64,000 nt of DNA, taken from contig CAWHVC010000003.1 of the NCBI GenBank assembly GCA_963832745.1, forward strand, positions 672,001 to 736,000, read 5' to 3'. This stretch comes from Candidatus Bathyarchaeota archaeon (GTDB lineage: Archaea > Thermoproteota > Bathyarchaeia > Bathyarchaeales > Bathycorpusculaceae). Position numbers and translations under genes: made by a program. The notes below the pieces were generated by a model that was given only the letters and a program-made list of their open reading frames with translations, did not search any database and was not told where the DNA came from. This document shows positions 38,710 to 44,567 of this stretch, piece after piece. Numbering within the stretch: the stretch's first letter is position 1; each line of letters begins with the position of its first letter.

Positions 38710-39627
38710 TTAGTACATTGAAACTAAATCGTTTGCGTAAGGCAAGCCTGCCCTTGCGCCCATTGCCGTTACGCTTCTGGCTGCTACAAAATTGCCTATT
38801 CTGCCGCACTCGTAGAGATTTATTTTATTGTCTAAGAGTCCGTAGAGAAAGCCTGCGTTGAAAGCGTCGCCTGCCCCCGTGGTGTCAACTGCTTGAACTG
38901 GAAAAGCATCGACTATGAACTGTTCTTGTCCATCCGTAACATAACAGCCTTTTTCGCCAAGTTTAACAGCTACGATTTTGACGCCCATTTCAAGTATGAA
39001 GTCTGCGCCTTTACGGTAGTCAACCTCGCCTGTTAACTCTTCAAGTTCCAAGGCGTTGGGCATAAACAGGTATGAGCTTCTAATCAGGGGTTCTATTGCA
39101 GTAAGGCCTTTTTGGGCATAGAGGGCGCCGGGGTCGAAGCTGACTTTAATGTTTTTTGGCAACATGCCTGCAAGCTTTTTCTGTGCACGGAACGGTCTAT
39201 CGCCAACAAACGATGAAAGATGCAGAAAACTGGTTTGGGCAATATACTCCAGATTGATTTCTCTTGATTCTAAGGTGTCGTTCACGCCGGGGTTAATGTA
39301 TAAGGCTCTTGCGCCTTTCTTATCGACAAACCCCAGACAGACGCCGCTTTTGCCCTTTTTTGAGTGAATAATGCCGTTAGTATCAACACCTTCACTGCTA
39401 AAACAGTCAATTTGTATTTGCCCTTCATGGTCGTCGGCGATTTTTCCGATAAAACCTGCTTTACATCCAAGCCTAGCTAAACCAACCATGGTGTTTGCTG
39501 CTGAACCACCGCACGCTTCGGTGTAGTTTTCGATGAAACTTTCTTCCTCTGGACCTGCAATGCGTTCAACTTTTAGGAGAGTATCAACGTTTAATGCGCC
39601 AAAACCTATTACGTCAAGTTTATTCAT
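38710..39627 (-). CDS. PfkB-family carbohydrate/nucleoside kinase (EhaT-like)
   Basis: GGSAANT, SFDPG, VKLGEKG, VDTTGAGDAF. Confidence 0.9.
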   Translation of the reverse strand: MNKLDVIGFGALNVDTLLKVERIAGPEEESFIENYTEACGGSAANTMVGLARLGCKAGFIGKIADDHEGQIQIDCFSSEGVDTNGIIHSKKGKSGVCLGFVDKKGARALYINPGVNDTLESREINLEYIAQTSFLHLSSFVGDRPFRAQKKLAGMLPKNIKVSFDPGALYAQKGLTAIEPLIRSSYLFMPNALELEELTGEVDYRKGADFILEMGVKIVAVKLGEKGCYVTDGQEQFIVDAFPVQAVDTTGAGDAFNAGFLYGLLDNKINLYECGRIGNFVAARSVTAMGARAGLPYANDLVSMY

Positions 39628-40554
39628 TTATAACATCTCACTGAATGGGATTTTGTATTGTCCAAGTTTGCCGCCGTAGTTGCCTGCTGAAATGCGTACG
39701 ACGCCTTCAACATCAAGCACTGCTCGGATTCCGGCTTTAATGGCTTTTTTAACTGCATCCTCGTTTACGCCGTCGATGACTAGTTCCGCTATATAGTTTA
39801 CCCCGTCTGGAACAAGGGATTCCTTACCCAACCTTGCTTTGAGCGATGGGCAGTAGACATGGTTAGTTGTGGGACCAATTTCCGGGAAACGGGTTTCAGG
39901 TTTGGAGCCTGCTGAGCAAACATCAAACGACGTGACTACGCCTGGAACCGTGTGCATTGCTGCAAGAGACTTTTTCCCAGCCTCTTTCAGCGCCTGCTTG
40001 GTTGTGCACATAACCCAAAAGTTGCCGCCCATAATACCACGGGCATAGCCGATGTAGTGTTCAATTATAAAGTCTGGAACCATCAAAGGCACAACGATAA
40101 CTTCTCTGCCATAACGTTGCTCTACCCATTCATAGCCGTCGCCGCAGTGACCGACACGCGGCATCATGTCCATTTTGCCTTCTGCGTTAGGCAGGGCGTC
40201 GAAAACTGCTGTGAATGGTTTAACCAAGATATCTTGACGGATTTTGTAAGAAAGCTCTTTCTCAAACTTTTCAAGACATTTCTCAAAGCCCTTTTTCTCG
40301 TTAAGTTCTCCCCAAAACTGTAAGATTGCGCCTACTCTGCCGTCTGGGGTTTCTTTTTCGGTGAGGTAGCGTTCTACTCCTCCTTCTGTTCTGCCAATAA
40401 CGACTGACGGGGTGGCTGTTGAATCGTTAGCTGCCGCAGTCAGTGTTTCCATGTCGTCCGCGGTTACGATTACGCGGCTAAAAATTCCCTGAAACGCTTC
40501 AACAAAGGTATCATCAATAGTAACTTTCTGATTCAATTTATCCAAGTCTCCCAA
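39628..40554 (-). CDS. ftr: Formylmethanofuran--H4MPT N-formyltransferase family protein (Ftr/EhaS-like paralog)
   Basis: [52 protein letters not shown]. Confidence 0.88.
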
Positions 40555-41617
40555 TAGCTACGCCACGAACCTTCTTTCGAAATTCGCTACTTTCAGTAAC
40601 TATTGAGTTCATATTTTCGCTTGTAACTATTTGAACCTTCGGCAACACATTCGAAGACCCAAATACTTGTTTAACCAACTCTGAACCTACTCTGGCGGAT
40701 TCCAACGCTGCTTGACTCCAAGTTTCCACTGCATTAATTGTCTGGTTCCTGCCTAACCGACAGAACATGTCGGTTATGGCAGCGGTTACAAGGTTGCTCT
40801 CCGATATTACAGCAACATCGGCATTTCTAACAGCATAACTGTTACCATTAAACGAAACCGCCAAACCCCCATTTTCCCGTACCAAACGGAATGCTTCAAC
40901 ATCTGTTATGCTGTCGCCAACATACATCACGTTCTCCAATCGCCCATTAAGACGTTTGACAACGTCGCGGATGGCTTCAGCTTTCTGTTCTCCTCCGACC
41001 GTAATAACGTCGCTGAGGGCTGTTCCGACAGTCATTTTAGGAATTTCAACCCAGAAAATCTCGTCCAGCCGTTTGATAAAGGCTTGGTCTTTTGCTGAAA
41101 AGTTTTTGAGGCTTTTAGCGTTTGCTGGAATCTCAATCAGGGGCATTTGACTGATTTCTTGCGCCATTCCCCTTAGTTGGTCTCTTTCTTGCGCCGTTAT
41201 GGGTGCCTTGTCGAGGCTGACCTTGGTGCAATACGTGTTTTTGTATGGAAAATCTACTGCTTTGCATAGCGCTTTAATGTAATGCTCATAACTGGTGCTA
41301 ACAATGTAGGCGTCAGCGATTGATTGAACATGCTTAAGTGTAGTTTGTGTGCCAGCGATTAGTATGATGTTTTCAGCAGAAAACTTTTCCATCTGCTGGT
41401 CAGTTAAGCCGTAAGCCTTCAAAAAAGGCAAAATCAACCTCAAAGTGCCGCCTGCACAGTAGCCTTTTTTCTTTAAAACATCCGCCAACACGTCATCGTA
41501 CCTGCTGACGTTGCAGAAGAAGGTGTCGCCGTTTGGAATAAAATTGGCAGCTAACTCGTAGGCGTTGTCGTTTTTTGAAATTGGTCCTTCACAGTCGGAA
41601 ACAAAGATGCTCTTCAC
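40538..41617 (-). CDS. HAD-superfamily hydrolase (EhaR-like)
   Basis: [13 protein letters not shown] (HAD motif I-like), [23 protein letters not shown] start at 41617 overlaps the purD stop. Confidence 0.75.
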
Positions 41618-43029: not shown

Positions 43030-43067
43030 CCAATGACACCGTTTGATTGATAGGAAAGATTGGGGGC

Positions 43068-44567
43068 TTAATTTGCTTTTTTGCCGTCGGTATGTGTTTC
43101 TTCGACTTCGTAGATACGGTTTTTCTCCTCGTACCCTTTGAGGAACTTCTGTTTCATCTCGTCAGCCATTTTTTGAGCTAAAGGCGTTGGGTACTTGCCG
43201 GTAACACATGCCATGCAAAGCTGGTCTTGGTTTTGTCCGGTGGCTTCAATGAGTTTCTCGTGGGATTGGTAACATACGCCGTCTGCGCCTATGATTTTTG
43301 CGATTTCTTCTGGACTGTTTCTTGAGCCGATAAGTTGACCGTAAGTGGACATGTCAATGCCGTAGAAGCATGGTCCAATGATTCTTGGGAAAGTCACGAA
43401 AACGTAAACTTTTTTGGCGCCTGACTTGCGTAGTTTATCAATGATGACTTTGGTTGTATCTCCACGTACGATGCTGTCTTCACAGATTATAACATTTTTT
43501 CCAGCTACTTTGGAGCCTAAAATGTTAATTTTCTTGTCAATAGTTGAGAAACGTTCATTGTTAAGCAGGATGAAAGCTCGTTCGGTAACGTAACGGTGTC
43601 TCCTTGACGCTCGTTCCCACCGTAGCCCTGAAGCTTCATGAACACCCATGGCTGGGTCATCACCAGTTTCAGGTACGGAAAGAATGATATCGCATTCTTT
43701 TACAATATCGGGGTTTTCATAAACGATGTTTCTTCCAAAAGCTTCACGGATTTCGTAAACGTATTTACCGTTAAACCTTGAGTCTGGCCTTGCAAAGTAA
43801 GCGTATTCGAAAGCGCAAAAGGCATGCTTTGACTTTTCGATGATTTGTTGGCGGACAAAGCCGTCTTTTGTAGCGATTACTAGTTCGCCTGGAAGTAATT
43901 CAAAGTCGCGTTCAAGACTGTTCATGTCTAAACTGACTGTTTCAGACGAAAAAGCCACTGTCTGATGATCTTGGCTGTGTCCAGCGCATAAGGGTTTAAT
44001 GCCGTTGGGGTCTTTAAAAGCGAAAAAGGTTCCGTCATCTAAAATGCCTGTTACCGAAAACGCGCCGTCTAAACTTTCCATGACTCCACGTACGGCTCCG
44101 GCTAGGTCTTTTCCTTCTTTAAATCCAAGTAGGAGTTTGTGGCAGACAATGTCGGAGTCACAGGTGTAGTTGAAGTTTGAAAAGTTCTTGTACATTTCTT
44201 CTTTTAACTGTGAAGTGCTCACGATGTTGCCGTTGAATGATAATGCAAGTTTTATTTTGTCTGTTGAGCCGGTGACGGGTTGTGTTCCTTGAATTATTGA
44301 TGATTCGTCACATTTTCCTGAGGTTGTATACCTAACGTTTCCGATTCCGATTGAACCGGGGAGTCTTCCAAACCATTCGTTTATTGCTTTTGTTTTAATT
44401 TTTGGAACAAGGTCTAAGTTCTTGTAGCTGAAGAACTGGCCGTTGTTGTAGGTTAAAAAGCCGTGTGATTGGTGGCCTCGATGGTTTTGTGCTCGAAGTC
44501 CCCAGTAAACGAATGGGAAAACTGGTTGATTATTATAGTTTTTTACACCAAATATGCCGCAGCCTAT
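43068..44567 (-). CDS. purF: Amidophosphoribosyltransferase (full length, apparent ATA start)
   Basis: Hand translation extends the track ORF 115 codons upstream without a stop: (I)GCGIFG...NHRG...GNVRYTTSG...QP...NGNI; later CAFEYAYFARPDS, EDSIVRGDT, CFYGIDM, CMAC. Confidence 0.92.
   Translation of the reverse strand: MGCGIFGVKNYNNQPVFPFVYWGLRAQNHRGHQSHGFLTYNNGQFFSYKNLDLVPKIKTKAINEWFGRLPGSIGIGNVRYTTSGKCDESSIIQGTQPVTGSTDKIKLALSFNGNIVSTSQLKEEMYKNFSNFNYTCDSDIVCHKLLLGFKEGKDLAGAVRGVMESLDGAFSVTGILDDGTFFAFKDPNGIKPLCAGHSQDHQTVAFSSETVSLDMNSLERDFELLPGELVIATKDGFVRQQIIEKSKHAFCAFEYAYFARPDSRFNGKYVYEIREAFGRNIVYENPDIVKECDIILSVPETGDDPAMGVHEASGLRWERASRRHRYVTERAFILLNNERFSTIDKKINILGSKVAGKNVIICEDSIVRGDTTKVIIDKLRKSGAKKVYVFVTFPRIIGPCFYGIDMSTYGQLIGSRNSPEEIAKIIGADGVCYQSHEKLIEATGQNQDQLCMACVTGKYPTPLAQKMADEMKQKFLKGYEEKNRIYEVEETHTDGKKAN

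Follow-up and report, generated by a model that had tools for sequence, protein, structure and literature searches.

Which enzyme formylates glycinamide ribonucleotide (GAR) in archaea that possess neither PurN nor PurT is the question raised by a locus in a Candidatus Bathyarchaeota archaeon (GenBank assembly GCA_963832745.1). The window analysed here is the 64,000-nucleotide stretch from 672,001 to 736,000 of the forward strand of contig CAWHVC010000003.1, and positions within it are counted from its first nucleotide. Five co-directional genes on the minus strand, at 38710-44567, encode the purine enzymes PurF and PurD, a haloacid dehalogenase (HAD) superfamily protein, a paralog of formylmethanofuran:tetrahydromethanopterin formyltransferase (Ftr) and a PfkB-family kinase. 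The paralog, of the type named Ftr2 or EhaS, is a candidate for the conversion of GAR to formylglycinamide ribonucleotide (FGAR) and would represent a third GAR formyltransferase, not homologous to the other two; from sequence comparisons, the probability of this reading is put at roughly 0.7. An initial annotation of the window had proposed that the last three genes form a purine module in which the Ftr paralog formylates GAR, and comparative genomics lends this proposal strong support.

The pathway gap has been noted before. Brown 2011 (PMC3261824) reported that a GAR formyltransferase could not be found in two Archaeoglobi, four Methanobacteriales and Methanopyrus kandleri, and according to Chadwick 2022 (PMC9012536) the anaerobic methanotrophic archaea (ANME) of group 1, the Archaeoglobales and the Methanobacteriales lack PurN and PurT, the enzyme being "as yet unidentified". 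The latter paper also names the Ftr2 clade, states that only Ftr1 is characterised, and reports Ftr2 from ANME-1, Archaeoglobales, M. kandleri and M. marburgensis; in its available text this is reported apart from the missing enzyme, and the two are not linked. A published assignment of EhaS or Ftr2 to GAR formylation was not found in the open-access literature, the supplements of Brown 2011 and Chadwick 2022 aside, and the main text of Adam 2022 (PMC9635834) contains no mention of EhaR/S/T, Ftr or purine terms. What is new here is that the pathway gap and the paralog, described separately before, are joined: the locus brings together two puzzles, a missing GAR formyltransferase and the EhaR/S/T and Ftr2 proteins without a function, and gives a concrete candidate.

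The operon begins with purF (43068-44567), encoding a glutamine-phosphoribosylpyrophosphate amidotransferase of divergent type with GATase and PRTase domains, which matches TIGR01134 with 308 bits (cut-off 350) over 432/432 profile positions. It is followed by purD (41614-43029), encoding a GAR synthetase, likewise of a divergent type that travels with the module, with GARS_N/A/C domains and a TIGR00877 match of 239 bits (cut-off 288). The HAD gene (40538-41617) starts with GTG and encodes 359 amino acids (aa) of the EhaR type, with the motif I sequence D-C-E-G-P. In the product of the ftr2 gene (39628-40554) the two Ftr lobes, FTR and FTR_C, cover the full length (PF01913, 147.9 bits; PF02741, 182.1 bits), which places it in the Ftr family, and NF002554 is matched with 336.5 bits (cut-off 297). 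The last gene (38710-39627) encodes a ribokinase-like PfkB-family kinase of the EhaT type (PF00294, 181 bits; TIGR02152, 168 bits, cut-off 299.65). A 38-nucleotide (nt) gap separates purF from purD, the purD stop and the HAD start share a GTGA overlap, the HAD and ftr2 genes overlap by 17 nt if the ftr2 start is TTG 40554, and the gap between ftr2 and the kinase gene is 0 nt. Past the kinase stop a T-rich tract at 38670-38700 of the same strand, read off the sequence, is a probable archaeal terminator and operon end. Promoter and terminator consensus scans of the locus performed no better than on shuffled sequence, and an Rfam search of the region before purF, aimed at riboswitches and other RNAs, returned two sub-threshold miRNA matches only. 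The five-gene arrangement is not due to chance, being repeated across related loci.

The ehaA-T operon of Methanothermobacter encodes an Ftr-like EhaS and a ribokinase-like EhaT (Kaster 2011, PMC3087415), and its last three genes, ehaR, ehaS and ehaT, match the window trio in family and in order. In Methanobrevibacter the trio stands directly after a [NiFe] hydrogenase cluster with two polyferredoxins, matching ehaA-T, and look-alike clusters of the HAD protein in the ESM Atlas include a close one named EhaR, others being found in Thermoplasmatota and Thermodesulfobacteriota. The window trio, unlike EhaR/S/T, is joined to purF-purD and not to a hydrogenase: it is not part of an eha operon, purF-purD preceding it instead, and among the 60 of 65 window open reading frames (ORFs) of at least 90 aa that were scanned, no hydrogenase domain was detected with Pfam or NCBIfam. 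ORF positions and profile matches therefore bear out the five tightly coupled genes and the junctions described in the initial annotation, as the scan does its statement that hydrogenase genes are missing beside the trio; its comparison with EhaR/S/T is borne out by the Methanobrevibacter synteny, the Atlas cluster and what is given in Kaster 2011.

The host genome (3.02 Mb in five contigs) is estimated to be 99% complete, and no match to Formyl_trans_N (PF00551), the domain of PurN, occurs anywhere in it. PurT is also missing, the best TIGR01142 match being one of 47 bits in a 1098-aa CarB-like frame; the absence of purN and purT, on which the initial proposal depended, is thereby confirmed for this genome. 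PurL is present (680 bits), encoded away from the operon. No PurH was found, and two tandem PurP genes are present, for which reason Ftr2 as a stand-in for PurH was rejected. Among PurF, PurD, GAR formyltransferase, PurL and 5-aminoimidazole-4-carboxamide ribonucleotide (AICAR) formyltransferase, the functions searched for, GAR formylation is the sole step without a gene; PurM, PurE/PurK, PurC, PurB and IMP cyclohydrolase lay outside this search. Mch and FwdA are encoded as well, and with the canonical Ftr described below they allow both formyl-methanofuran and formyl-tetrahydromethanopterin (formyl-H4MPT) to be made.

Although a member of the Ftr family, the window paralog scores 228 bits against TIGR03119, the canonical-Ftr equivalog model, with a cut-off of 292.6. 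A second, canonical Ftr, the separate copy that the initial annotation had proposed to look for, is found 390 kb away in the same genome, and five further genomes reached through related loci also carry both proteins (six in all). The canonical gene lies ~5 kb from purL (G000:C3:319009-326723). Ftr2 proteins of Bathyarchaeia, Methanobacteria and Halobacteriota are 42-94% identical to the window protein, whereas Ftr2 and canonical Ftr share only 32-39% identity, the canonical copies of the six Ftr2-bearing genomes included. A hidden Markov model of Ftr2 (A2), built from 16 paralogs, gives a bimodal distribution in Bathyarchaeia, at least 349 bits versus at most 243 bits with no overlap. A quick maximum-likelihood search (LG+G4) with 57 Ftr2 and 16 canonical sequences recovered the split between the two with an SH-aLRT support of 100. 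The phyla interleave within the Ftr2 clade, where Bathyarchaeia sequences surround both the Methanobacteria and a Halobacteriota group; the gene has therefore moved horizontally several times. The eha-linked Methanobrevibacter orthologues, 55-58% identical to the window protein, lie inside the clade, and one Halobacteriota subclade has close relatives in named Archaeoglobi records; the window protein, with HAD and PfkB genes adjacent, groups with these eha-linked paralogs and with the "Ftr2" of Archaeoglobi and ANME. Solitary "Bog" Halobacteriota genes (66-71% identity to the window protein) were considered as the canonical Ftr of those organisms, a reading under which the window gene, too, would be canonical; separate canonical copies are present there, and both assignments were rejected.

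Canonical Ftr (1FTR/2FHJ, 1M5H, 1M5S) and FhcD (6S6Y) belong to the same two-lobe fold family (PF01913 and PF02741). The alignment is near full-length, residues 11-307 of the window protein corresponding to 6-296 of the 297 in 1m5h, with scores of 164-183 bits for the archaeal structures and 99 bits for FhcD. E257 of the window protein aligns with E252 of 6s6y_D (FhcD) and with E245 of 1ftr_A (M. kandleri), the latter being presumably the catalytic Glu of that enzyme, its position recovered by counting in 1ftr_A. The Glu at this position is invariant in 21/21 aligned Ftr and Ftr2 sequences and is one of 32 positions common to Ftr2 and canonical Ftr; in FhcD, Glu252 is described as the oxyanion-stabilising residue (PMC6926001). 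Thirteen further positions are fixed in Ftr2 and different in canonical Ftr: G23, P49, W81, R106 (Gly in canonical Ftr), G135, C137, W180, C183, E220, P224, I226, G227 and P228. Ftr2 has "GHCGDG" where canonical Ftr has "FFGDG", and most Bathyarchaeia members carry a 7-9-residue insert.

This conserved architecture, complete with the catalytic Glu, would also suit a second isoenzyme of formylmethanofuran:H4MPT formyltransferase, acting in one-carbon (C1) or energy metabolism, in an anaplerotic branch fed by Eha or on a methanofuran or pterin variant, with the link to purines incidental. The NF002554 score above its cut-off fits such an enzyme, as does the position of Ftr2 beside the eha hydrogenase in Methanobacteria, for which cotranscription is reported in Kaster 2011 (PMC3087415); Eha is described as supplying the ferredoxin for formyl-methanofuran synthesis, by which withdrawn C1 units are replaced (PMC3585446). 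This alternative is nevertheless judged improbable. It sits poorly with the TIGR03119 score below cut-off and with the 13 residues by which Ftr2 departs from canonical Ftr, and Chadwick 2022 (PMC9012536) reports that Ftr1, not Ftr2, is highly transcribed in ANME. Unlike canonical Ftr, Ftr2 is always additional to a canonical copy, and both the genes that accompany it and its distribution among genomes point towards purine synthesis.

The phyletic pattern was obtained from 473 genomes (151 Bathyarchaeia, 121 Methanobacteria and 201 Halobacteriota; Methanococci, Methanopyri and Thermoplasmatota lay outside the sample), with a threshold of E<=1e-40 for PurT-model hits in Bathyarchaeia. The six genomes with both Ftr types (G000-G005) have Ftr2 in 6/6 cases and PurN or PurT in 0/6. 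Ftr2 is present in 56/151 Bathyarchaeia. Of the 122 that encode PurD, 53 have Ftr2, and 51 of these 53 are without PF00551 and without a PurT-model hit; among the 69 with PurD and no Ftr2, one or the other is found in 61 and neither in 8. All 121 Methanobacteria carry Ftr2, and PF00551 and PurT are each found in 0/121. PurN and PurT are both missing from 78 of the 84 Halobacteriota with Ftr2 (PurT from every one of the 84), and PurN or PurT is present in 105 of the 117 without it. The relation that had been suggested between the EhaS clade and the absence of purN and purT is thus one of complementarity, and it is found in three phyla. Switches occur within families: in family f11 of the Bathyarchaeia, two genomes have Ftr2, eight a PurT-like protein and one PurN, and family f21 is mixed too. 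H4MPT users with PurT are without Ftr2, and the HAD protein too is found in 0/12 PurT-like, Ftr2-negative genomes of families f11, f12 and f17, so the pattern is not simply one of folate versus H4MPT or of a lack of folate. A second methanofuran enzyme would leave unexplained this complementarity with PurN and, above all, with PurT among H4MPT users, and equally the operon with purF-purD.

Ftr2 is unrelated to PurN and PurT in sequence and fold; the same product, FGAR, and the same place in the pathway are proposed for it, and apart from the exceptions weighed below the distributions are mutually exclusive. The formyl group is proposed to come from H4MPT or methanofuran, while PurN uses 10-formyl-tetrahydrofolate (10-formyl-THF) and PurT formyl phosphate. 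HAD and PfkB accompany Ftr2, whereas PurN and PurT genomes are as a rule without them.

Among 80 related loci carrying the Ftr paralog, purF-purD-HAD-Ftr2-PfkB is complete and in the same order in 56, and another 11 are cut by contig ends and consistent with it. HAD-Ftr-PfkB occurs on its own in four (Methanobrevibacter), and the paralog stands alone in nine, whose titles are Euryarchaeota, Methanobacteriota, Halobacteriota and ANME-like, bar one Bathyarchaeia and one Acidiferrales. The closest public loci, with 92-94% protein identity, are from Candidatus Bathyarchaeia (one is titled Thermoproteota), and those with 85-91% include Ca. Bathycorpusculum. Linkage to pur genes, which the initial annotation had named among its tests, is conserved throughout the Bathyarchaeia; outside them it is weak, Ftr2 being mostly solitary in 20 Halobacteriota loci compared. 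Four contigs titled Methanocella, Candidatus Acidoferrum, Limnocylindrales and Acidiferrales (L024, L041, L054 and L073) carry an Ftr2 of Bathyarchaeia type at 69-77% identity, with the whole operon in L024 and L054, and these titles probably reflect mis-binning in metagenome-assembled genomes.

The most telling arrangement is found in one Bathyarchaeia genome, G033, in which the operon reads purF-purD-[330-aa Formyl_trans_N protein]-HAD-PfkB-folD (L128, G033:C17:11000-24000; 2353-9066, minus strand). The best PDB sequence matches of the 330-aa protein are GAR transformylases throughout, and it retains the equivalents of N106, H108 and D144 of Escherichia coli PurN, and the genome still has a canonical Ftr. 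The slot differs, the PurN-type gene lying between purD and the HAD gene where Ftr2 follows the HAD gene. The start of the operon is the same in G145, and a similar PurN-type gene lies beside purD in G007, G015 and G039. Together with the complementarity, the appearance of a PurN-type gene and folD, the supplier of formyl-THF, in the Ftr2 operon argues most strongly for Ftr2 doing the job of PurN; the exchange finds no explanation if Ftr2 is a methanofuran isoenzyme.

The purD genes give a related picture. Full-length PurD linked to the module scores 206-270 bits (contig-cut partials 175-183; G036 397), against 300-505 in PurN or PurT genomes. Family f11 shows the same division, with 222-223 bits in Ftr2 genomes and 342-376 in PurT genomes, the type following the module and not taxonomy. 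Over the Bathyarchaeia as a whole the PurD scores are bimodal (206-281 versus 300-505 bits), and the low-scoring type is also found in family f15 and in genus g44 of f18, both without Ftr2 and HAD. The five genes behave as one co-adapted mobile unit.

A divergent PurD that, like PurF, follows the module rather than taxonomy might instead mean that Ftr2 formylates another amine of the pathway: glycine too presents a -CH2-NH2 group, and N-formylglycine could be ligated by the module PurD to phosphoribosylamine to give FGAR directly, or AICAR could be the acceptor. Of the explanations considered this is the most remote. The module PurD spans the TIGR00877 profile from position 3 to 422 of 425, nothing testable in it hints at a changed ligand site, the complementarity is with PurN and PurT, enzymes of the GAR step, and HAD and PfkB are given no role; AICAR formylation, for its part, is already covered by the two PurP genes.

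The distribution of the HAD protein follows that of the module closely. It is found in 62/151 Bathyarchaeia, comprising all 56 with Ftr2, one with a partial Ftr2 (G067) and five with a divergent PurN-like gene, and in 0/89 others; in Halobacteriota it is found in 75/84 genomes with Ftr2 against 18/117 without. Nine of these 18 are also without PurN and PurT and may be incomplete genomes. Where Ftr2 is solitary, the HAD gene lies elsewhere in the genome in 5/5 cases, followed by PfkB in two of them. In G001, a 51-aa match to the HAD C terminus (profile 310-360) at G001:C1:2417718-2417870 lies directly upstream of Ftr2 (2417877-2418782), and the full-length HAD gene is 2.2 Mb away; the short stretch seems to be what is left of an earlier HAD-Ftr2 pairing. 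HAD tracks the module and not the C1 carrier, and HAD and PfkB are obligate partners of the formyltransferase slot. A role of the two as general suppliers of ribose 5-phosphate was given less weight, HAD being confined to genomes with Ftr2 or an operon-embedded PurN-like gene.

The predicted structure of the HAD protein (pLDDT 94.9) confirms the HAD fold, with AF1437 of Archaeoglobus fulgidus (1y8a), a structural-genomics entry, as the best match of the model (TM score 0.78 on the query and 0.89 on the target, 24% identity) and phosphoserine phosphatases next. HAD motifs I-IV are present, and S107-T108-S109, K212 and G234-D235...D239 are invariant. The window protein is set off by its motif I, D8-C-E10 (DxE and not DxD), and by a conserved C-terminal extension of ~100 residues that ends in RGxxIGxLG. 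The kinase retains "DTTGAGDAF", with the GAGD catalytic motif, and the sugar-binding Asn/Asp pair. Ribokinase binds ribose through Asn14, Asp16 and Lys43; the Lys43 equivalent is a Ser in the window protein ("GGSAAN"), and the EhaT-type protein is a PfkB kinase, but not demonstrably a ribokinase.

A plain formyl transfer needs neither a kinase nor a phosphatase-like enzyme, and the presence of both leads to a further alternative, in which HAD, Ftr2 and PfkB make, recycle or repair a cofactor or precursor that is needed without folate, for instance a ribose phosphate or an intermediate of H4MPT or methanofuran, the true GAR formyltransferase being another, unrecognised protein. H4MPT biosynthesis includes phosphatase and kinase steps to which no enzyme is known to be assigned, and such a trio might fill them; the HAD look-alike clusters in Thermoplasmatota and Thermodesulfobacteriota and the sugar-phosphate enzymes beside some Ftr2 genes would agree with it. 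The chance of this being correct is nonetheless considered slim, as HAD and PfkB remain in the operon when a PurN-type enzyme and FolD replace Ftr2, the 12 PurT-bearing H4MPT users do without Ftr2 and HAD, and no other candidate gene is at hand for the single pathway gap.

If Ftr2 is the GAR formyltransferase, it would supply C8 of the purine ring in H4MPT-using archaea without PurN and PurT. FGAR carries its formyl group on -CH2-NH-, as formyl-methanofuran does, so the simplest chemistry would be the Ftr reaction run backwards, GAR occupying the methanofuran site. Ftr2 would keep the machinery of Ftr, with a protonated Glu stabilising the tetrahedral oxyanion, and would pass the formyl group from formyl-H4MPT to an amine, with the -CH2-NH2 of the glycinamide in GAR standing in for the aminomethyl-furan of methanofuran: N5-formyl-H4MPT + GAR would give H4MPT + FGAR. 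Formyl-methanofuran is a less likely alternative donor. Formyl transfer from formyl-H4MPT to furfurylamine is reported to cost only +4.4 kJ/mol (PMC6926001), and ATP-dependent PurL would pull the reaction forward. According to labelling results quoted in Brown 2011 (PMC3261824), purine C8 of M. stadtmanae derives from C2 of acetate even with formate present, which is not so in M. smithii; a donor from the H4MPT C1 pool would reconcile the two.

HAD and PfkB, confined as they are to module genomes, are thought to act on the same substrate as Ftr2, and with low confidence they may change how the ribosyl substrate is phosphorylated before and after the formyl group is transferred. The most economical model would be an ATP-driven "dephospho-shunt" (dephosphorylation, formylation of the riboside and re-phosphorylation), which is put forward as a tentative and rather doubtful possibility. 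In this scheme, the EhaR-type HAD protein would strip the 5'-phosphate from GAR, Ftr2 would move the formyl group of N5-formyl-H4MPT to the glycinamide riboside, bound in the site that holds methanofuran in Ftr, and the EhaT-type kinase would re-phosphorylate the product to FGAR in an irreversible step, one ATP being spent to pull the transfer from a donor regarded as too weak for biosynthesis. The first three steps of the purine pathway would then constitute a self-contained, horizontally mobile module of five enzymes. In Methanobacteria the trio would be wired to the Eha hydrogenase, with the formyl units drawn for purines replaced anaplerotically.

Several observations weigh against GAR formylation by Ftr2. 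All of the support for it is association, and related genomes are not independent, so that the counts given above overstate their statistical weight and do not amount to a statistical test. Six of the 84 Ftr2-bearing Halobacteriota have a full-length PurN, four of them holding the most divergent Ftr2 proteins (329-344 bits); these six fit the report that ANME-2a/2b carry both Ftr2 and PurN (Chadwick 2022, PMC9012536). Both exceptions in the Bathyarchaeia are weak, one being a 79-bit partial PF00551 match (G154) and the other a 175-bit PurT-model match (G006), presumed to be in the PurK range. None of the three enzymes is found in 8 Bathyarchaeia with PurD and no Ftr2 or in 12 Halobacteriota without Ftr2; among the former, G067 carries an Ftr2 truncated by a contig end, and 9 of the latter have HAD. 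Only 17 of 54 PF00551 hits in Bathyarchaeia are full-length and PurN-like, the remainder (35-93 bits, in frames of 250-400 aa, mostly of family f18) being perhaps not PurN but other formyltransferases.

The Halobacteriota loci, too, speak against the purine assignment. At 17 of the 20, the other four module genes are absent within ~8 kb by tblastn; of the other three, one has purF 5 kb away, one an adjacent HAD-PfkB pair and one a HAD gene at 5 kb. Three of the 20 Ftr2 genes adjoin phosphofructokinase (PFK) or aldolase genes, and this recurrent sugar-phosphate neighbourhood is left unexplained by a role in purine synthesis. N-formyl-H4MPT is, moreover, generally seen as a poor formyl donor (Brown 2011, PMC3261824, citing Maden 2000). 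As to the dephospho-shunt, it has no direct support, and with its DxE motif I the HAD protein may not be a simple phosphatase.

The sugar-phosphate loci are of two kinds. At L103 (G441) and L104 (G360), a PFK gene and a class-II aldolase-like gene run in the same direction as Ftr2, with a fructose-bisphosphatase (FBPase) gene upstream in L103; at L105 (G435), an FBPase gene and an aldolase-like gene are divergent beside Ftr2. At one of the 17 loci without module genes, L111 (G286:C1:760300-777200), mch and purM, identified with Pfam, lie co-directional just upstream of Ftr2 (5520-8898), with an opposite-strand HIT-family gene between. This locus ties H4MPT formyl supply, a purine gene and Ftr2 together outside the Bathyarchaeia.

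Were the assignment of Ftr2 to the GAR step correct, a third, evolutionarily unrelated GAR transformylase would exist, and the hole recorded since 2011 and still open in 2022 in the purine pathway of Methanobacteriales, Archaeoglobi, Methanopyrus and ANME-1 would be closed. The C1 pool on H4MPT and methanofuran would feed purine C8 directly, which matters for models of carbon flux in methanogens, anaerobic methanotrophs and acetogenic Bathyarchaeia. The biosynthetic-looking genes at the end of the eha operon would be explained and EhaR/S/T given a function, and the annotation of thousands of genes named formylmethanofuran--H4MPT formyltransferase would be corrected.

The first gene of the operon has an unusual start. 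Upstream of the catalytic Cys of purF there is no ATG, GTG or TTG, and standard ORF calling gives just 384 aa from GTG 44222. The frame opens after TGA TAA, and an ATA codon (44567-44565) lies two codons before the Cys, making this codon 3, six bases behind a Shine-Dalgarno-like GAGGGA box (44579-44574; the two together span 44565-44579 of the minus strand). In the 17 sequences compared, the same codon is mostly ATA, with ATG in L018 and L066, ACG in L024 and L025, and ATC in L064, L078 and L079; L064 and L078 also have an in-frame ATG further upstream. A GAGGGA or AAGGGA box is conserved behind the start in relatives (L009-L079), several of which have in-frame stops just upstream. The start position of 44567 in the initial annotation is therefore upheld by its conservation, with the correction that the codon is ATA and not a standard start, and purF seems, from this alignment, to start at a near-cognate codon. 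Mature PurF requires Cys as residue 1, so a leader of two residues would have to be removed.

Elsewhere in the window, an archaeal type IV pilus or archaellum-like locus at 45025-54790 of the plus strand is divergent from the purF promoter region and contains several small ORFs that resemble pilins, one of which has Pilin_N, together with FlaJ/T2SSF-like membrane proteins and an ATPase of the FlaI/TadA type (49414-51009). Four paralogous B12-binding radical S-adenosylmethionine (SAM) genes lie on the plus strand at 28566-36394 (28566-29939, 32018-33403, 33441-34826 and 34928-36394), and among them are a same-strand aldo-keto-reductase/ferredoxin fusion and an opposite-strand SAM methyltransferase. 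At 8108-10491, also on the plus strand, a gene for a UbiA-type prenyltransferase is followed by one for a radical SAM protein in which the zinc-ribbon domain HMPTM (PF23545) is present and which, by the name of the domain, may be a methanopterin-related methylase.

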